From an uncultured Bacilli bacterium (GTDB lineage Bacteria; Bacillota_I; Bacilli_A; RF39; UBA660), in NCBI GenBank assembly GCA_934098455.1, contig CAKOOU010000001.1:135933-199932 (forward strand): DNA of 64,000 nucleotides. Reading direction: 5' to 3'. A program made the position numbers and the translations under genes. Positions 12,289 through 56,052 of the stretch are shown one piece after another. The notes under the pieces were generated by a model. It was given only the letters and a program-made list of their open reading frames with translations. It made no database searches and was not told where the DNA came from. The stretch's first letter is position 1. The number at the start of each line of letters is the position of its first letter.

Positions 12289-13305
12289 ATGAATTTAGAA
12301 CCAAACATACAATATATAAATGTAGAAAATATAATTCCAAATAGATTTCAACCAAGACTAACTTTTGATGAAAATGCTTTAAAAGATTTAGCATCATCTA
12401 TAAAAGAACACGGTATTATACAACCATTAGTCTTAAGGAAATTATCTAATGATAAATATGAAATAATTGCAGGAGAAAGAAGATATAAAGCAAGTCAAAT
12501 AGCGGGATTAAATAAAGTACCAGCAATAATAGCAGATTTAGATGATAACACTTCAGCAGAAGTAGCGCTAGTAGAAAATTTACAAAGAAGAAATCTTTCT
12601 GCAATAGAAGAAGCAAAATCCTATAAAAAACTATTAGATAGAGGATATTTAACTCAAGATCAATTAGCAAAAAGATTAGGTATTTCACAATCTTCAGTAG
12701 CAAACAAGGTAAGATTATTAAATTTACCTGATGAAGTACAAGATGCATTAATGTCTGAAAAAATATCAGAAAGACATGCAAGAAGTTTATTGTCACTATC
12801 TAATCCACAAGACCAAATAGATATGTTAAATAAAATTATAGAAAACAGATTAACAGTAAGACAATTAGATAATGAAATAAAAAAATTACATGAACCAGCA
12901 CCAGAAGAAACATCATCTAGATTTAATATTTTAAATAATGAAGAAAACAAAGATTTATTAAATCAAATAGAAACTTTAGATATGTCATTTAGTGATAATG
13001 AAGATAACACAGATTTAGAAAGTGAAGACATTGCAAAACTAATAATGGATTCTAAAAAACAATTGCAAAATCAATATGAAATATTTGATATACCAACAGC
13101 AGAAGAATCTAAACCAGTAGAAACTAAAGTCGAAGAACCAAAAGAAACAAAACCTCAAAAAAGAATTATAAAAGGCGATTTAAATTCTGTAATAAATTCT
13201 TTAAAAGATATAGAACAAGAAATTAGTGATGCCGGTTTCCAAATAGAAACTGAAGATTACGATTTTGAAGATTTATATCAAATAATTATAAAAATAGAAA
13301 AATAA
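12289..13305 (+). CDS. parB: ParB/Spo0J/Noc-family DNA-binding protein with long acidic C-terminal extension
   Basis: It has the ParB box IIAGERRYKAS and the HTH LTQDQLAKRLGISQSSVANKVRLL. No adjacent parA/soj gene is present. Confidence 0.85.
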   Translation: MNLEPNIQYINVENIIPNRFQPRLTFDENALKDLASSIKEHGIIQPLVLRKLSNDKYEIIAGERRYKASQIAGLNKVPAIIADLDDNTSAEVALVENLQRRNLSAIEEAKSYKKLLDRGYLTQDQLAKRLGISQSSVANKVRLLNLPDEVQDALMSEKISERHARSLLSLSNPQDQIDMLNKIIENRLTVRQLDNEIKKLHEPAPEETSSRFNILNNEENKDLLNQIETLDMSFSDNEDNTDLESEDIAKLIMDSKKQLQNQYEIFDIPTAEESKPVETKVEEPKETKPQKRIIKGDLNSVINSLKDIEQEISDAGFQIETEDYDFEDLYQIIIKIEK

Positions 13306-13340
13306 AGTGGAAAACTTAATACTTATCCACTTTATTTTTT
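13304..13340 (+). terminator. parB terminator hairpin (copy A of a duplicated hairpin element)
   Basis: The stem AAAGTGGA (13304-13311) / TCCACTTT (13326-13333) is followed by a T-run. The 3' arm contains TTATCCAC (13323-13330). A near-identical element lies at 14585-14620. Confidence 0.75.
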
Positions 13341-13464
13341 TGACAAGTTTTGTCGAAAGACTTTATTTTTATTTCAAAACACTTTAATATAACTAACCGA
13401 GCGTCCAGGTTGGTGTTTACCTTACTAACTGATTCTAGCAAAGAATAAGAAGTGAGGTGGTAAT

Positions 13465-13539
13465 ATGTTTAAAAATTTAAAACAATTAATAAACAGAATT
13501 ATCATAATTTTGATATTAAATATTCTTAACAAAGATTAA
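13465..13539 (+). CDS. Type I toxin-like small hydrophobic peptide (24 aa), locus 1
   Basis: The ORF is MFKNLKQLINRIIIILILNILNKD after GAGGTGG. The 5' leader (13400-13413) is complementary to the 3' UTR (13604-13609, 13619-13626). A convergent antisense unit lies downstream. It is below the size cutoff of the ORF track. Confidence 0.5.
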   Translation: MFKNLKQLINRIIIILILNILNKD

Positions 13540-13544
13540 ATTAA

Positions 13545-13632
13545 ATCAAAACAAAAACATCCGCCACTCAGTTAGGACGGATGCTATCCCTCAGGGTAGA
13601 CATCCAACCTACAGGGGGTGGACGTTCTACTT
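13545..13632 (-). ncRNA. Candidate antitoxin sRNA antisense to the 3' UTR of locus 1
   Basis: On the minus strand, TTGACT (13668-13663) is separated by N18 from TATTAT (13644-13639). The terminator hairpin CATCCG...CGGATG (13583-13558) is followed by TTTTTGTTTT. The ends are predicted, not mapped. Confidence 0.45.
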
Positions 13633-13787
13633 AATAAAATAATAACATATAGAATATCGTAAAGTCAAACACTAAAATATCGTACTATAAGCACGGATAT
13701 TAGTTTACATTTATAATTGTAAATAAAATAATTTTACAACAAAAAATAATAGAATTTATGATATAATTATCATAGGAGAGTGAAAAA

Positions 13788-14576
13788 ATGGAAGAAACAA
13801 AAAATAATTCAAAAGGGTTAATAGTTTTGGTAATAATTCTAATTATTTGCGTATTAGGTTTAGGAGGATACATAGTCTATGATAAAATGTTAAATAAAAC
13901 AACACCAATTTCAAACAATACAAAAAGTTCCAAAACAAAGCCAATAAATAATGAAAGTGAATATGATAAAACTACATCTTACGATATTACATTAAATAAT
14001 AATAATCATAAAATTTATTATAAATATAAGATAGTAGCTGGAAATGACAATTATGAAGATAAAGAACTAGCAAAAGGAAACGGTGAGTATGTTTATAATG
14101 AATTACATGCTGAAATATATTTAGATAATAATAAAATAAAAGATACTGTTATTTATTATGATAAAGAAAACAATATTAATAATGTAAAATCAGAAAAAGA
14201 AAATTTAGATTTATCAAATACAAAAATAATAAAAGGAAAAGATAATAAAGAATACTTAATATTTACATTAGAAGAACCACATCAATTTCTTGACGGTAGA
14301 AAAGTTTTATTTATTTCAAATGACGATGGAAACTTAATATACAAATACGAACCTGAATTTAACAGTTCTTTAACAGTTGATGACCCAAATTCAAAATTTT
14401 ATAATTCAAGTGAAAGATATATTATAGAAACAGATAAAATATATATTATAGAAGACGCGGAAAACAATGAAAATGGCACTATAAAAATTCAAGAAAATAT
14501 ATTAACAATTGAAAACAATGAAGTAAAAATAGAAAAAGGTAATATATACGAAGGTTCTGGAGCAGGTGCCAGATAA
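13788..14576 (+). CDS. N-terminally membrane-anchored extracytoplasmic protein, paralogue 1 of 3
   Basis: The signal-anchor MEETKNNSKGLIVLVIILIICVLGLGGYIVYDK is shared with the ORFs at 27107 and 55207. It has RBS AGGAGAGTG and an extended -10 TGATATAAT upstream. Confidence 0.8.
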   Translation: MEETKNNSKGLIVLVIILIICVLGLGGYIVYDKMLNKTTPISNNTKSSKTKPINNESEYDKTTSYDITLNNNNHKIYYKYKIVAGNDNYEDKELAKGNGEYVYNELHAEIYLDNNKIKDTVIYYDKENNINNVKSEKENLDLSNTKIIKGKDNKEYLIFTLEEPHQFLDGRKVLFISNDDGNLIYKYEPEFNSSLTVDDPNSKFYNSSERYIIETDKIYIIEDAENNENGTIKIQENILTIENNEVKIEKGNIYEGSGAGAR

Positions 14577-14584
14577 TATAAAAT

Positions 14585-14620
14585 AAAGTGGAAAACACCT
14601 AAGTTATCCACTTTTCTTTT
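14585..14620. terminator. Bidirectional terminator hairpin (copy B of the duplicated element)
   Basis: The stem is AAAGTGGA (14585-14592) / TCCACTTT (14607-14614), and the element contains TTATCCAC (14604-14611). The flanking 17 nt AAAATAAAGTGGAAAAC is identical to copy A. It lies between convergent genes. Confidence 0.7.
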
Positions 14621-26590: not shown

Positions 26591-26724
26591 TTTTTTTTTA
26601 TGAAAAGTTTTGGCAAGTTTTGTCGAAACACTTTATTTATATTTAAAACTATTGTAGTATATCTAATCGAATATTCAAGTTCTTAGTGTCTACCTACAGC
26701 TTATTAAGGAGGTAGGTTGATTAT

Positions 26725-26817
26725 ATGACAAACAAATCATTTATTTTAAAAATATTTGATAAATTCATAATAATAATCAAATTGGTTATTTTATCTAAAA
26801 TACTCTTCAGGGGGTAA
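26725..26817 (+). CDS. Type I toxin-like small hydrophobic peptide (30 aa), locus 2
   Basis: The ORF is MTNKSFILKIFDKFIIIIKLVILSKILFRG after AAGGAGG. The 5' arms GAATATTCAA (26669-26678) and GTGTCTACCT (26686-26695) pair with the 3' UTR segments TTGAATGTTC (26920-26929) and AGGTAGACAT (26902-26911). Confidence 0.5.
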   Translation: MTNKSFILKIFDKFIIIIKLVILSKILFRG

Positions 26818-26860
26818 TTGGTTAAATATTAATTAGACACTAGTATTTTAATTATGGTTC

Positions 26861-26932
26861 AAAAAAAGAACACGTAATTAATACGTGTGTCTAACCCAAA
26901 CAGGTAGACATTCAGCAATTTGAATGTTCCCT
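26861..26932 (-). ncRNA. Candidate antitoxin sRNA antisense to the 3' UTR of locus 2
   Basis: On the minus strand, TTGACA (26966-26961) is separated by N16 from TATAAT (26944-26939). The terminator stem ACACGTA/TACGTGT is followed by T7 (plus-strand A-run 26861-26867). The ends are predicted. Confidence 0.5.
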
Positions 26933-27106
26933 AATAAAATTATAACACAAGTAATATTTGTGTCAACATATATAAAATAATTATTTTAAAATACGTACTA
27001 TAAGCACGGAAAAATTTTGTAATTTACACAAAGCAATGTAAATATATTATTAACGATATACAATTACAAGTAAATATAATATAATTATCGTAGGAGAGTG
27101 AAAGAA

Positions 27107-27886
27107 ATGGAAGAAACTAAAAAAAGTTCAAAAGGTTTAATATTACTAATAATTGTTTTAATTGTATCTGTATTAGGTTTAGGAGGATATATAGTATATG
27201 ATAAAGTTTTAAATAAAAATAAACAAACAACAAGTACAAATAATAATAATACATCTTCAACAAATAAAAAAGAAGAAAATACAAATTTAGACAATAGCGA
27301 TAAAAATAGCATTTTAGAAACATATATACTAGAAAATATTGATTTAGAAAGTAGTTATGAAGTATTAAATAATGAAGAGTATAAAGCGTTAGTAAAAAAA
27401 TATGAAGACAACGCAAATAATATTATTGAGAATGAAAATGAAGTTGCAATAAATAATACTATTAGTACAGAAATAAATTGGAAAGAAGTTTCAAAATATG
27501 TAGACAATAATTCACTAATTAGCAGAATGACAGAAAATAGTAGATTAAAAAGTGTTAAATACGATGATTTATTGAAAACAAAAAAACAATTATATGGAGA
27601 AAACTCAATTTTAGAAAAGCAAAATTTTAGTTACGGAAATTGTAGTGAATACATATATATAGAAAAATTAAATATATATATTGAAAATAATGAGGGATGT
27701 GGATTGAATACTAGCGAAGAACCCATTATAAAAAAAATAATAAAACAAAATAATATACTATTCGTTTTTGTAAATACATATAATTATACAGATTTTGAGA
27801 GTCCAATTTATTCTCAAGATGTAGTTATGGAATTTAGAGAACAAAGTTCTGGATACTATTTATATAAATTAACAAAACTAAATTAA
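27107..27886 (+). CDS. N-terminally membrane-anchored extracytoplasmic protein, paralogue 2 of 3
   Basis: It starts MEETKKSSKGLILLIIVLIVSVLGLGGYIVYDK. The start was set at ATG 27107, homologous to paralogue 1, with the same AGGAGAGTGAAA RBS context. Confidence 0.8.
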   Translation: MEETKKSSKGLILLIIVLIVSVLGLGGYIVYDKVLNKNKQTTSTNNNNTSSTNKKEENTNLDNSDKNSILETYILENIDLESSYEVLNNEEYKALVKKYEDNANNIIENENEVAINNTISTEINWKEVSKYVDNNSLISRMTENSRLKSVKYDDLLKTKKQLYGENSILEKQNFSYGNCSEYIYIEKLNIYIENNEGCGLNTSEEPIIKKIIKQNNILFVFVNTYNYTDFESPIYSQDVVMEFREQSSGYYLYKLTKLN

Positions 27887-33841: not shown

Positions 33842-36340
33842 ATGAAAAAATATACAAAAAGGTTTTTAGATATTTTTGATTTTAAAAATTTATTATTTGA
33901 ATCTATAATATTAAGTTTTATTATAGTGTTTGTTGATGCTCTTAATCTACCAACATTAATGGTTCAAAATAATTGCCTGTTTTTATTGATTTTAGTCTTA
34001 ATATTTTTTGCCGTTAAGATTATATCCGTTAATAATTTTAAATTGACCTTGACTAAGAATTTAAATACAGTAGATAGATCTATATTTATTTATAGTATCT
34101 CGATACTTATTTTAATTATATATGTATTAGGATTTGATTTAAAAGCATATAAATTAATAGTATTAAGTGTATTAAGTTTATTGTTAATTGCTATTTATGT
34201 GTTTAGAATAATTAAAACAAATCAAAGACATGAAGATTTAGAATTTAATATTTTAGATTTGCAATATGTTTGTAAAAATAAAATTGAATTAAGTAATAAA
34301 AAAATTGCATTATTAGAAGAAAAAGATGTAGATTATGATCTTTTAAATAAGAAAGATGTAATTAATCAATTGTATAATACAATTATAAATTGTTATCCAG
34401 AAAATAATTTTACAATAGGTTTGAATGGTAAATGGGGAAATGGAAAAACAACTATAATTAATAATGTCTTGAGAATAATAGAACAAAATGGTTTATTGGA
34501 TCACTATGTAATTGTTAAATTTGATCCATGGAAATACGATGATGAAAAAAATATATTACAATCTTTTTTGAATGAAATTTTAAATAAAATTGATTATGAT
34601 TTAGATATAGAAAAAGACAATTTTTTGATTCAAAATGTAATTGATTTAGTATTTGAGTCTAAACTAAGTGGACTAAATAAAATATTTTACAATGAAATAA
34701 AAAAAATAAAAAGTAAAGTTCAAATTTCTGAAGTGGTAAATGACTATTTATTAAGTAATAACAAAAAGTTATTAGTTATATTTGATAATTTAGATAGAAT
34801 AGATGCAGAAAAGGCATTTTTCTTAATTAAATGCGTTGAATCCATTGTGCAATTTAAAAATACAATCAATATATTGTTGTATGAAGAAAAAATTTTAAAT
34901 AGATTATTAAAAGAAAAGTTTAATTATGAAGAAAGATATATGGAAAAACTTGTTCAATTAAAAATTGATGTTCCAGAAACTGATATTTATACAATTAACA
35001 AAGTAAAAAAACAAATTACAAAAAATATGTTAATTAATGGAGAAACTTTTATAGAATTTATAAACGATGAACAATATGATTTTAAAAATATAAGAGAATT
35101 AAAAAGGTATATAAATTCTATAATTTCATCTAATTTAGGTTCGAATTCATATCTTAACAAAAATGATGATTCTAATTTAAAATATATTAAATCTGTTTGT
35201 CCTGAACTTTATTATGAAATTTGGAATAATAAAAATTATTTTATAACTTATGACAGGCAATATATTATGGAAATATATACTTGGGATTATAAACGTTTAA
35301 ATAAAGATGCTAAAATCTATTTTAAAGATTTGTTAAGCAAAAATGATTTTAAAAATTATAGTACTTATTTAGAAAAAATGTTTCCAAGTGTAAAAAATTA
35401 TTTGAAAGAAATAAATCCGTTTGAAGAACATGCAAATTTAGAAGAATATAATAATAGCATTATATATAACAAGATTTGTAATGCTAGATATTTTGATTTG
35501 TATTTTACTCGTGAAGAAAATGATTTTATAAGAATTAATAGAGAAGTGGAAAAAATTATTGATATTATTAACAATAAATCAGATTTTGAAGAAGAATTTT
35601 TAAATTTAATAAAATCTTTTAATATGGATGAATTAAAGGTTTTTTGTGAGGTATTAAATATTAATACAAATAAATTGAATAGGGAGAAAAATTTGGATTT
35701 AATAATAGTGTTATATAATTTAAATTTATTCTTTTACGATCGTGTATTATTTTTTGAATTAGATTCATGGAAAAGAGTTAATATTATTATTGCTGACTTA
35801 TTATCAAAAATATCAAAAGAAGAATTTGAAAAGTTTAAGAAACTTTCATGTAAAAATTATAAAAATTTAAAATTAATAAGTAATATTAAATATTGGGTTG
35901 AAAATAATAAAAAGAAAAATATTGTTTATAATTTTGAATTTGAAGAATTATATGATGAATTGTGTGCAAACATATTAACGAATAAAATAAATTTATATTT
36001 AAAGAAAAATTATTCTAGAGGTAATATATGGTCGTTGTTTCATTATGATAATGAAGAGACAAAAAAATATGTTAGTGATATTGTTGATGAAAACAATATA
36101 TATGATTTTATAAGTGACATTATATCAATATCAGTTGGAACTAGAAAATTTGGATATCATATCGATTTAGAAAATATAAAAGCAATTGCTCCTAATGTAG
36201 ATATTGATAAACTGATACAAAATCATGTAAAGCCATTATCTAATAGAGAAGAATTTATTAAAAAAGTTTATGAATTTTCTAAACTTGAAAATAAAGGTTT
36301 TGATGATGCAATATATGTAGATGAATATGTAGAAATATAA
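33842..36340 (+). CDS. KAP-family P-loop NTPase with N-terminal multi-TM region
   Basis: It has ~4 hydrophobic helices in the first ~125 aa. Next come Walker A GLNGKWGNGKTT, the KAP-typical VKFDPWKYD, and Walker B LLVIFDNLDR. A long alpha-helical C-terminal region follows. Confidence 0.85.
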   Translation: MKKYTKRFLDIFDFKNLLFESIILSFIIVFVDALNLPTLMVQNNCLFLLILVLIFFAVKIISVNNFKLTLTKNLNTVDRSIFIYSISILILIIYVLGFDLKAYKLIVLSVLSLLLIAIYVFRIIKTNQRHEDLEFNILDLQYVCKNKIELSNKKIALLEEKDVDYDLLNKKDVINQLYNTIINCYPENNFTIGLNGKWGNGKTTIINNVLRIIEQNGLLDHYVIVKFDPWKYDDEKNILQSFLNEILNKIDYDLDIEKDNFLIQNVIDLVFESKLSGLNKIFYNEIKKIKSKVQISEVVNDYLLSNNKKLLVIFDNLDRIDAEKAFFLIKCVESIVQFKNTINILLYEEKILNRLLKEKFNYEERYMEKLVQLKIDVPETDIYTINKVKKQITKNMLINGETFIEFINDEQYDFKNIRELKRYINSIISSNLGSNSYLNKNDDSNLKYIKSVCPELYYEIWNNKNYFITYDRQYIMEIYTWDYKRLNKDAKIYFKDLLSKNDFKNYSTYLEKMFPSVKNYLKEINPFEEHANLEEYNNSIIYNKICNARYFDLYFTREENDFIRINREVEKIIDIINNKSDFEEEFLNLIKSFNMDELKVFCEVLNINTNKLNREKNLDLIIVLYNLNLFFYDRVLFFELDSWKRVNIIIADLLSKISKEEFEKFKKLSCKNYKNLKLISNIKYWVENNKKKNIVYNFEFEELYDELCANILTNKINLYLKKNYSRGNIWSLFHYDNEETKKYVSDIVDENNIYDFISDIISISVGTRKFGYHIDLENIKAIAPNVDIDKLIQNHVKPLSNREEFIKKVYEFSKLENKGFDDAIYVDEYVEI

Positions 36341-42258: not shown

Positions 42259-42648
42259 ATGGTTAAAAGATATAAAAACTACAAAAAAGAAAGTTCGTAT
42301 ACATTAGTAGCAGGGATAAGTTATTTTATAAGACAATTTTTGTTACCTAATCCATTTTCTAATTTGTTTGAATCAGGGATCACAGAATTAATAAATTAGA
42401 TTTTTGGTGGAATTTTAATAGCTTTAGCATATATTTTAACTGGAACATGGTATGTTAGTAAAAAAGGTGAATATTGGAAAGGTAGTTTAGGATTTTTGAT
42501 TAATTTTTCTGTAGTGACTGGCTTAATATTGTTTATTAGTAAATTTATTACAAATATATATTTGGTGTTAGTAATTTTAATATTTTTATATATTATTTTA
42601 TTTTTTCTAGAAAGATGGCTATTAAATAGACATAATTCTATATTTTAA
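42259..42648 (+). pseudogene. Small membrane protein gene interrupted by an in-frame TAG
   Basis: After AAGGAGG the ORF reads MVKRYKNYKKESSYTLVAGISYFIRQFLLPNPFSNLFESGITELIN, then TAG (42397-42399). The same frame continues IFGGILIALAYILTGTWYVSKKGEYWKGSLGFLINFSVVTGLILFISKFITNIYLVLVILIFLYIILFFLERWLLNRHNSIF. Confidence 0.4.
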
Positions 42649-54577: not shown

Positions 54578-54888
54578 TAAAAACCCTCCTACTTATATTA
54601 TTGTGAAAAAATTTGCATTTCCTTTTTTTTATTGTAAAACTTTACACTTTTATGTAAAATGTAGTAAGTATAATATGGTTTATATGTGAATGATAAAGTT
54701 AATTTTAAAGTTTTTTTAAAGATAATATTGTTTTTTTATATTTATATGTAATATATTACATTTGTTTTTTTATATATATTTTTATTGTATTTTTGTTGTG
54801 CTATATAATATTTTGTATTATAATACTTGTAGGGATATTTAATTGTTGAGTACTTGCCTACTTTCATTTAGAGAGGAGGCTTGATTTT

Positions 54889-54978
54889 ATGAAGAAAAAA
54901 GATTTATTAATCTCGCTTCTAATATTAATTATCATTTTATTAATAGTTTCTATAATGATTCTATGCATAAAAAAATAG
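54889..54978 (+). CDS. Type I toxin-like small hydrophobic peptide (29 aa), locus 3
   Basis: The ORF is MKKKDLLISLLILIIILLIVSIMILCIKK after GAGAGGAGG. A TTGTGC-N17-TATAAT promoter lies at 54796-54824. The 5' arm GTTGAGTA (54845-54852) and CCTAC (54857-54861) pair with TACTCAAC (55032-55039) and GTAGG (55027-55031). The 3' end is ...GTACTCCC followed by T7. Confidence 0.5.
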   Translation: MKKKDLLISLLILIIILLIVSIMILCIKK

Positions 54979-55089
54979 TACTCAATCTAAACTTAGTAGA
55001 TTAAAGTACTAAACACCATTATAAAGGTAGGTACTCAACTCACTAAAATTAAGTACTCCCTTTTTTTATTGTATTCAAATTTCTTTGAC
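54969..55089 (-). ncRNA. Candidate antitoxin sRNA antisense to the 3' UTR of locus 3
   Basis: On the minus strand, TTGCAT (55124-55119) is separated by N17 from TATCAT (55101-55096). The terminator hairpin AGTACT..AATCTA/TAGATT..AGTACT (55010-54977) is followed by T7 (plus-strand A7 54969-54975) and overlaps the last toxin codons. Confidence 0.45.
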
Positions 55090-55206
55090 ATATTCATGAT
55101 ATCATAGTTTATTTAATTATGCAATGTTTAGTTTACGCTATATTGCAATATTTCTATTTGAAATATAGAAAAGTATATGCTATCCTAATAATAGGATGGT
55201 GTAATA

Positions 55207-56052
55207 ATGAAAGAAACTAAAAAAATAAATAAAGGAATAATAACAGTGATAATTTTACTTATATTAGTTATATTAAGCCTTATAGGTTATATAATTTATG
55301 AAAAGATAAAAAGTGATAGAACCTTACAAAATTCAAATAATATTACAACATCTAGTACAACAACAACTGAAAGTAATAAATTATCTGACAAAGAAATAGA
55401 AGAATACTTAAGTTATGTACCAATAAAACCAGAAACTGACTTAATTTCTAATTATAATGAATATTATGATTATGATGAAGATGCATATAGTGGTAAAATT
55501 GAAAACATAAATAACATAAATGAAAAATTATTATTAGCACATGCATACAATAATGCAAAAGAAACTAATACTGAGGAAGAAATCACATCAAATATGTGTG
55601 GAGATAGTGTTAAATGTAGAGCTGATAAATATGTATTAGAATCTGATTTAATTTCAGAAATGAAAAAAATGTACAATATTAACACAATTAACTCTAAATC
55701 ATTTAAAATTCCAGGCGGAATTGTTGAACATAACGAAAAATATTATGTAGCATTTATGAACTTAGGATCCTCTCCAATAAATAAAATTAATAAAGTTTTA
55801 AAGTATGAATTTAATAATAATAATTTAATAATATATGAAAAAGCTGGATTTATAGTTGATTTACAAGGAGAAATCTCTATTTTAAAAACTACAAATAAAA
55901 ATGACATCACGAAGGAGGATCCATATACTAATAAAGATGATGCTATTAAATATATAGAACAAAACATTAGCGATTTTAATACATATAAACATACATTTAA
56001 ATTAAATGAAAATAATAATTATTACTGGTATAGTACTGAATTAAGCAACTAA
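55207..56052 (+). CDS. N-terminally membrane-anchored extracytoplasmic protein, paralogue 3 of 3
   Basis: It starts MKETKKINKGIITVIILLILVILSLIGYIIYEK. The C-terminal end NNYYWYSTELSN resembles SGYYLYKLTKLN of paralogue 2. Confidence 0.8.
   Translation: MKETKKINKGIITVIILLILVILSLIGYIIYEKIKSDRTLQNSNNITTSSTTTTESNKLSDKEIEEYLSYVPIKPETDLISNYNEYYDYDEDAYSGKIENINNINEKLLLAHAYNNAKETNTEEEITSNMCGDSVKCRADKYVLESDLISEMKKMYNINTINSKSFKIPGGIVEHNEKYYVAFMNLGSSPINKINKVLKYEFNNNNLIIYEKAGFIVDLQGEISILKTTNKNDITKEDPYTNKDDAIKYIEQNISDFNTYKHTFKLNENNNYYWYSTELSN

Follow-up and report, generated by a model that had tools for sequence, protein, structure and literature searches.

In an uncultured gut Bacilli bacterium, parB (12289-13305) is separated by 482 bp from a gene (13788-14576) whose product is a single-pass membrane protein of 262 aa. 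What is encoded in this gap? The window (the whole 64,000-nucleotide stretch of DNA analysed here, with a G+C content of 23.3%) is a bacterial chromosome segment that carries mnmG, rsmG, parB, a class A PBP gene, spoIID and pyruvate:ferredoxin oxidoreductase. Its closest public sequences are gut MAGs labelled as uncultured Bacilli, Erysipelotrichaceae or Tenericutes. Searches for a plasmid or phage origin by blastn returned A+T-rich chance matches only, or none, and a pattern scan of viral contigs gave no match. The initial annotation had read the gap as a type I toxin-antitoxin-like pair of convergent RNAs, and every in silico prediction of this reading that we tested, concerning fold, covariation, strand, antisense unit and geometry, held. 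On balance, we regard it as probable that the gap harbours one member of a new family of type I toxin-antitoxin-like modules working like bsrG/SR4.

The window contains three paralogous modules (13340-13700, 26610-27010 and ~54800-55130; Table 1), the last of which had escaped the initial annotation. Each of them combines a strong Shine-Dalgarno (SD) sequence, an ORF of 24-31 codons for a cationic hydrophobic peptide, a helix of 15-23 bp between the 5' leader and the 3' UTR, and a convergent minus-strand small RNA gene with a promoter-like site and an intrinsic terminator, both predicted from sequence. A fourth type was found in a related MAG (L007). Its RNA arms resemble those of type 2 and its peptide that of type 3, a combination that ties the types together; its promoter is truncated where the locus ends. 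When a descriptor made of a strong SD, an ORF of 18-45 codons and a leader/3'-UTR duplex was applied, the three window copies ranked far above the other qualifying ORFs. A light z-score scan of the large intergenic gaps of the window gave nothing comparable to the three modules, and a metagenome pattern scan for further family members gave one locus only (L034).

Table 1. Predicted features of the modules (window coordinates, except for the fourth type)
Feature	Position	Strand	Basis or remark
Left edge of module 1: inverted repeat UUUUGACAA-GUU-UUGUCGAAA and TTGACA (13340-13345)	13337-13358	+	read directly
5' arm of long-distance helix: P1 GAGCGUCCA, GGUUGG, P2 UGUUUACC	13399-13421	+	RNAfold, duplex, alignment
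Anti-SD ACCUUACU	13419-13426	+	overlapped by 5' arm
SD GAGGUGG, 4 nt upstream of ATG	13454-13460	+	read directly; predicted to pair with anti-SD 13419-13426
Candidate toxin ORF T1, 24 aa, MFKNLKQLINRIIIILILNILNKD	13465-13539	+	read from ORF list
3' arm: GGUAGACA, bulged U, CCAACC, bulge UACAGGGGG, UGGACGUUC	13595-13627	+	RNAfold, duplex, alignment
sRNA 1 intrinsic terminator: stem 13583-13558, then UUUUUGUUUUGAUUU	13543-13583	-	fold; end lies a few nt away from the ORF stop codon
Predicted antisense sRNA 1, ~85 nt	13545-13632	-	promoter scan and fold (z -4.25); 5' end covers 3' arm of mRNA helix
sRNA 1 promoter TTGACT-N18-TGtTATTAT	13639-13668	-	top promoter-like match in scan
Conserved 17-mer box CGTACTATAAGCACGGA	13681-13697; also 26994-27010	-	minus-strand hairpin then T run; upstream of sRNA promoter
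Paralogous module 2	26610-27010	+	RNAfold -76.4 kcal/mol
Module 2 P1	26669-26678 with 26920-26929	+	
Module 2 P2	26686-26695 with 26902-26911	+	
Module 2 SD	26706-26713	+	
Module 2 ORF, MTNKSFILKIFDKFIIIIKLVILSKILFRG	26725-26817	+	
Module 2 antisense terminator	26888-26870	-	canonical
Module 2 antisense promoter, TTGACA-N16-TGtTATAAT	26966-26939	-	perfect, 12 of 12 with TG
Paralogous module 3	54800-55130	+	encodes a clear transmembrane peptide; upstream of third paralogous TM-protein gene
Module 3 long-distance helix, 15 bp	54845-54859 with 55025-55039	+	RNAfold -53.9 kcal/mol
Module 3 SD	54873-54879	+	
Module 3 ORF, MKKKDLLISLLILIIILLIVSIMILCIKK	54889-54978	+	
Module 3 terminator stem, T run	54976-55011, 54968-54974	-	
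Module 3 U7	55061-55067	+	
Module 3 candidate sRNA promoter	55130-55101	-	
Fourth type, peptide MVKKREYVCKVLLLLAIILFLLLMIIVVIKK	L007 5857-6084	-	related MAG; downstream of priA

The leader segments AGCGTCCA (13400-13407) and GGTTGG (13408-13413) had been proposed to pair with TGGACGTT (13619-13626) and CCAACC (13604-13609) in the 3' UTR. This complementarity was recovered, with one G.U pair, and the helix extends further through pairing of UGUUUACC (13414-13421) with GGUAGACA (13595-13602) to reach ~23 bp in total. Folding of 13395-13632 with RNAfold yielded -71.4 kcal/mol with paired ends, a z-score of -7.3 and none out of 200 shuffled sequences folding as well; the corresponding z-scores are -9.1 (-9.07) at locus 2 and -5.4 (-5.38) at locus 3. 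The arm-to-arm duplex of locus 1 reaches -37.8 kcal/mol against -34.1 for the best of 1000 shuffles, and the arm duplexes of loci 1, 2 and 3 beat their shuffles in 1000, 1000 and 990 cases out of 1000, respectively.

The same helix is the consensus structure returned by RNAalifold for seven sequences of the four types. All helix cells are paired (113 of 113), with four compensatory pairs (AU to GC, UA to CG), five one-sided G.U changes and no broken pair, whereas sliding the structure by one to three columns left at most 45% of the cells paired. Since the family was found only in one narrow clade, this covariation stems from few independent lineages. Six helix columns contain G.U or U.G pairs that would be A/C mismatches on the opposite strand, which accounts for the greater stability of the plus strand in the three window copies (-71.4 versus -62.7, -76.4 versus -54.2 and -53.9 versus -49.0 kcal/mol) and for arm duplexes that are stronger by 7-10 kcal/mol. 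Within types, the helix substitutions all preserve pairing, namely 13401 G to A (G.U in the window, A-U in L058) and 26672 T to C (U.G to C-G). Helix conservation, compensatory changes and plus-strand G.U pairs together indicate that selection acts on a plus-strand RNA spanning both arms.

At locus 1, the SD has a predicted unpaired probability of ~0. The predicted folds show what is typical of type I toxin mRNAs, namely a sequestered SD and/or paired 5' and 3' ends. For types 1, 3 and 4, folding predicts local pairing of the anti-SD with the SD both with a free and with a blocked sRNA target, and blocking this target lowers the predicted accessibility of the SD in type 2 only. A uniform switch, in which the sRNA frees an anti-SD that closes the SD, was thus rejected, since folding agrees with it for type 2 and the SD of types 1, 3 and 4 is paired in both states. 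Downstream of the 3' arm, no canonical plus-strand terminator was found at loci 1 and 2, which have no U tract there; types 3 and 4 do have one.

On the minus strand, the promoter-like site TTGACT-N18-TATTAT (13668-13639) described earlier is present and has a TG upstream of its -10 hexamer. Similarly, the hairpin at 13583-13558 followed by TTTTTGTTTT folds as proposed; a simple terminator scan omitted it because its stem is bulged. In all four types, a minus-strand hairpin and a T run lie just 3' of the ORF, with hairpin sequences that are unrelated between types, and a promoter-like site is located beyond the 3' arm. At loci 1 to 3, these sites are found at 13668-13639, at 26966-26939 (12 of 12 positions) and at 55130-55101 (a weaker candidate, 9 of 12). 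The terminator of sRNA 2 lies ~45 nt past the ORF stop codon. Each module thus appears, at the level of sequence signals, to contain a cis-antisense RNA gene with its own promoter and terminator. The promoter hexamers and the terminator are kept while spacers and loops drift. An invariant UGUCUACC core is common to all sRNA types and is found again as the 5'-arm sequence in each paralogous toxin mRNA; nhmmer searches of 33 genome loci with the sRNA alignment gave nothing new. Lying upstream of the sRNA promoter, the conserved CGTACTATAAGCACGGA box probably acts as an insulating terminator. A perfected remnant of this box (L065, ~1045-1065) serves as terminator of an HTH gene after module loss.

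The toxin promoter itself is weak or ambiguous. TTGACA-N18-TATTTT (13340-13369, 10 of 12) was the only plus-strand match in the scan, and its TTGACA (13340-13345) may be read as the -35 box or as part of an insulating terminator-like hairpin. The GACAA-N3-TTGTC palindrome that overlaps this box had been reported as shared with locus 2. The repeat exists at locus 1, but the sequence at locus 2 is GGCAA-N3-TTGTC, and relatives display GACAT-N3-TTATC or GACAT-N3-TTGTC. Since the half-sites vary separately across locus 2 and the relatives, they do not co-vary, and a conserved operator was rejected on this ground. The repeat may be a terminator-like insulator; its equivalent at locus 2 (26607-26629) was scored as a plus-strand terminator-like hairpin.

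Concerning the peptides, the 24-aa ORF at locus 1 and the upstream GAGGTGG are both present as initially described, and the paralogous ORFs occupy the equivalent position in all four types. T1 is cationic and amphipathic-hydrophobic with a net charge of +3; it is the least hydrophobic peptide of the family, with a hydrophobic core of only 10 residues. T2, T3 and T4 are 29-31 aa long, and the four peptides range from 0.75 to 1.96 in GRAVY and from +3 to +5 in net charge. T3 and T4 are clear transmembrane peptides, while T1 and T2 are cationic, hydrophobic and amphipathic. As in the type I toxin-antitoxin class, each is thus a short (<60 aa) hydrophobic or putatively membrane-active peptide whose ORF has its own ribosome-binding site. 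Across the four diverged types, the SDs (GAGGUGG, AAGGAGGU, GAGGAGG and AAAGGAGGUG) and open frames of 24-31 codons have been kept in a genome where about one random codon in 11 is expected to be a stop. In the same vein, the intact type 2 alleles (window, L034 and L035) show three differences in the ORF, all synonymous.

By neither sequence nor covariance model could the modules be assigned to a catalogued family of RNAs or peptides. Rfam gave no match at gathering score over the whole window and, under permissive settings, nothing relevant at E-values up to 10 for locus 1 and none at E-values up to 1 for loci 2 and 3. Known structured RNAs (tmRNA, SRP RNA, 6S RNA, RNase P RNA, riboswitches and T-boxes) were discarded, as ARAGORN and Rfam found nothing. 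T1-T4 had no hit at or near the curated cut-off among Pfam, NCBIfam and PADLOC models, an Fst-type peptide was not matched in these curated-model searches, and phmmer returned no match for T2 among 1.84 billion representative proteins. Two further observations were made elsewhere in the window. An 827-bp gap holds short ORFs with SD-like sites at 42259-42399 (46 aa) and 42496-42648 (50 aa, very hydrophobic). Besides, the plus-strand segment 33519-33668, upstream of an 832-aa gene at 33842, is relatively G+C-rich and moderately structured (z about -3.9, from few shuffles), with no Rfam match.

Among characterised systems, bsrG/SR4 (BsrE-G-H group) is the closest in architecture. In bsrG mRNA, nucleotides 1-35 pair with nucleotides 232-262 in helix P1 and the SD is held in a stem, while SR4 overlaps the 3' end of bsrG, promotes mRNA decay and extends SD pairing (PMC3834814). 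The long 5'-3' helix, the SD in a stem and the convergent antisense RNA over the 3' strand of the helix, which rest on structure probing for bsrG/SR4, are all predicted here. Nevertheless, the two differ by the absence of sequence or covariance-model similarity, by unrelated peptides (24-31 aa versus 38 aa for BsrG), by the length of the sRNA (~75-125 nt versus 183 nt for SR4) and, at loci 1 and 2, by the absence of the terminator stem-loop that follows P1 in bsrG. An SR4-like effect on the SD is predicted for type 2 only. Moreover, bsrG/SR4 belongs to the SPbeta prophage of B. subtilis, whereas the present loci are found in uncultured gut Bacilli and outside prophages.

The 3'-overlap layout is that of Gram-positive type I families (PMC8594479). 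As in txpA/RatA and yonT/SR6, the genes are convergent, with the antisense RNA on the 3' side, and the toxin (here a candidate) is a membrane peptide. However, the toxins of that group are longer (~58-59 aa) and its antisense RNAs overlap the ORF (PMC8594479), while at loci 1 and 2 the predicted sRNAs end past the stop codon (sRNA 1 at ~13545, stop codon at 13537-13539). The geometry initially likened to both txpA/RatA and bsrG/SR4 is therefore retained for the architecture of the latter and for the 3'-side layout, but not for the ORF overlap of the former. With hok/Sok and aapA1/IsoA1, the modules would share a full-length mRNA held inert by a long-distance 5'-3' interaction and SD sequestration (PMC8594479), here predicted. 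In those Gram-negative systems, activation by 3' trimming is documented, and the antisense RNA targets the 5' part or the ORF of the mRNA, within which it is fully contained, whereas the antisense unit found here sits at the 3' end with its promoter beyond the 3' arm. Finally, fst/RNAII (par) and SprA1/SprA1as are also Gram-positive systems with a 3'-side antisense RNA off the ORF (PMC8594479). In these, the antisense RNA pairs productively with the mRNA 5' end, away from the overlap; here the sRNA and the 5' arm share their sense, so that such pairing is impossible.

Based on these features, the following mechanism can be proposed. The plus strand would give rise to an mRNA of ~235-260 nt for the 24-aa cationic membrane-active peptide, which would be folded shut by the ~23-bp helix between leader and 3' UTR and by the local anti-SD on the SD; full-length transcripts would consequently be poorly translated. 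From the convergent promoter just past the 3' arm, an antisense sRNA of ~85 nt would be produced, ending a few bases short of the stop codon. With full complementarity to the 3' UTR and the 3' arm within it, this sRNA would form a long duplex with the mRNA. The duplex would trigger RNase III-type decay and/or keep the SD sequestered. RNase III-dependent silencing is established for the txpA/RatA and yonT/SR6 group (PMC3531473; PMC8594479). As the effect on the SD is predicted for type 2 only, decay would be the more general arm of the mechanism and the translational arm is uncertain. We infer that both RNAs are produced and that the peptide is toxic.

Natural variation gives further insight into the modules, which are accessory, patchily distributed and insertion-like. 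The site of locus 1 is empty in sister species, where parB abuts the PBP gene (L067-69, L073), and so is that of locus 3 in a sister species (L074), with a gap of 135 bp versus 629 bp. The parB-PBP intergenic site is an insertion hotspot (window 13305-13341 and 14581-14620; L058-L073). Depending on the strain, it is empty or occupied by an IS200 element, by an HTH gene with a 159-aa gene, by the module alone, by the module with the TM gene, or by the sRNA half with the TM gene. On the distal side of the inserted block, the parB terminator hairpin occurs a second time. Near locus 2, a Fic-domain gene lies between a 178-aa ORF and module 2 in some strains (L015 1554-2491, L034, L037 1582-2424).

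Among the variants, the start codon is changed from ATG to AAG in L015, L037 and L052, with an additional frameshift in L015, and 5' deletions in L001 and L022 have removed promoter, leader, SD and most of the ORF, leaving the sRNA gene. The RNA helices of the variants display pair-preserving or loop changes only. Repeated inactivation of the ORF with intact RNA elements is what a gene with harmful expression would be predicted to show, and it is also compatible with a dispensable gene.

The retention of the sRNA after ORF deletion would not be expected of a pure antitoxin, and its conservation there hints at a further role. In L022, from a sister species with ~85% identical flanks, both promoter hexamers are invariant while the 18-nt spacer carries five changes and the upstream DNA diverges, and the sRNA body shows ~3-4 differences in ~86 nt (~95% identity) against ~15% divergence of the flanks. 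This provides good evidence that the minus-strand gene is functional. Could the sRNA then be a regulator with targets elsewhere, with a plus-strand ORF and mRNA that do not make a toxin but act as a dispensable sponge or regulatory partner, or persist as a decaying remnant? The survival of the sRNA half in L001 and L022, its conservation in L022 well above the flanks and the invariant core of all sRNA types speak for it. We nevertheless consider it unlikely, as the plus-strand-only G.U pairs and the compensatory changes in the long helix point to selection on the plus-strand RNA, and SD and ORF are kept in four diverged types. In addition, action of the sRNA in trans on the neighbouring TM gene was rejected: duplex energies with the TM-gene 5' regions, the nearest candidate targets, are no better than those of shuffles, leaving no significant complementarity.

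The genomic neighbourhood raises another question, namely whether the ORFs encode ordinary small membrane proteins, such as partners of the adjacent TM proteins, that are under antisense control and neither toxic nor addictive. Indeed, the three window copies are located directly upstream of paralogous TM-protein genes, and the duplicated block continues through the TM-gene promoter into the first 37 codons. This explanation seems improbable to us because module and TM gene occur separately: the module is intact with no neighbouring TM gene in L058-61 and L007, and the TM gene is found alone in L074 and in 29 of the 33 genome loci. Strong predicted locking of translation and recurrent natural inactivation of the ORF are also more typical of toxins. 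As for the TM genes themselves (13788-14576, 27107-27886 and 55207-56052), they have in common their first ~37 residues (ending ...GLGGYIVYDK) and are otherwise unrelated in their bodies. At locus 2, the body is replaced outright between strains with ~97% identical flanks (L001, L015, L034, L035), so that these genes look like a hypervariable surface-protein cassette. The arms of an inverted repeat, TTTACA-N8-TGTAAA (13704-13723 and 27023-27042), are conserved in all relatives, and its loop varies freely; this repeat overlaps the -35 box of the TM-gene promoter and may act as an operator.

Finally, the plus strand could specify a structured RNA with no coding role, or a leader that regulates the downstream TM gene in cis, the ORF being incidental. 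The highly structured plus-strand RNA would fit, as would the AAG start-loss alleles tolerated in several strains with the structure kept, and the fact that no clear plus-strand terminator precedes the TM gene at loci 1 and 2. This reading is nevertheless very improbable, given that the four diverged types have all kept a strong SD and an open frame of similar length in the same position, that intact alleles differ only synonymously, that the TM gene has promoter-like sites itself, that modules are present with no downstream gene and that there is no Rfam match.

To return to the toxin-antitoxin reading, the sRNAs could be more than private antitoxins, either by forming a cross-protecting network over the toxin paralogues or by acting in trans on other GGUAGACA-carrying mRNAs. 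This extension is suggested by the purifying selection on the sRNAs after ORF deletion (L022, L001) and by their shared UGUCUACC core, and we regard it as quite improbable. If it were true, the modules would constitute a regulatory system tied to adjacent hypervariable surface-protein genes.

To conclude, homology searches detect type I toxin-antitoxin systems poorly, and few lineages are known to carry them (PMC12390103). The modules described here would add a family from uncultured, very A+T-rich gut Bacilli that is recognised by RNA architecture alone. Besides, the set of metagenome variants, with intact modules, start-codon knock-outs, 5' deletions with orphan sRNAs and empty sites, would make it possible to test how modules of this kind are acquired, silenced and lost. 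The design of bsrG/SR4, in which an antisense RNA is directed at the 3' strand of a 5'-3' helix, would recur in the absence of sequence similarity, and this recurrence makes it usable as a search descriptor.
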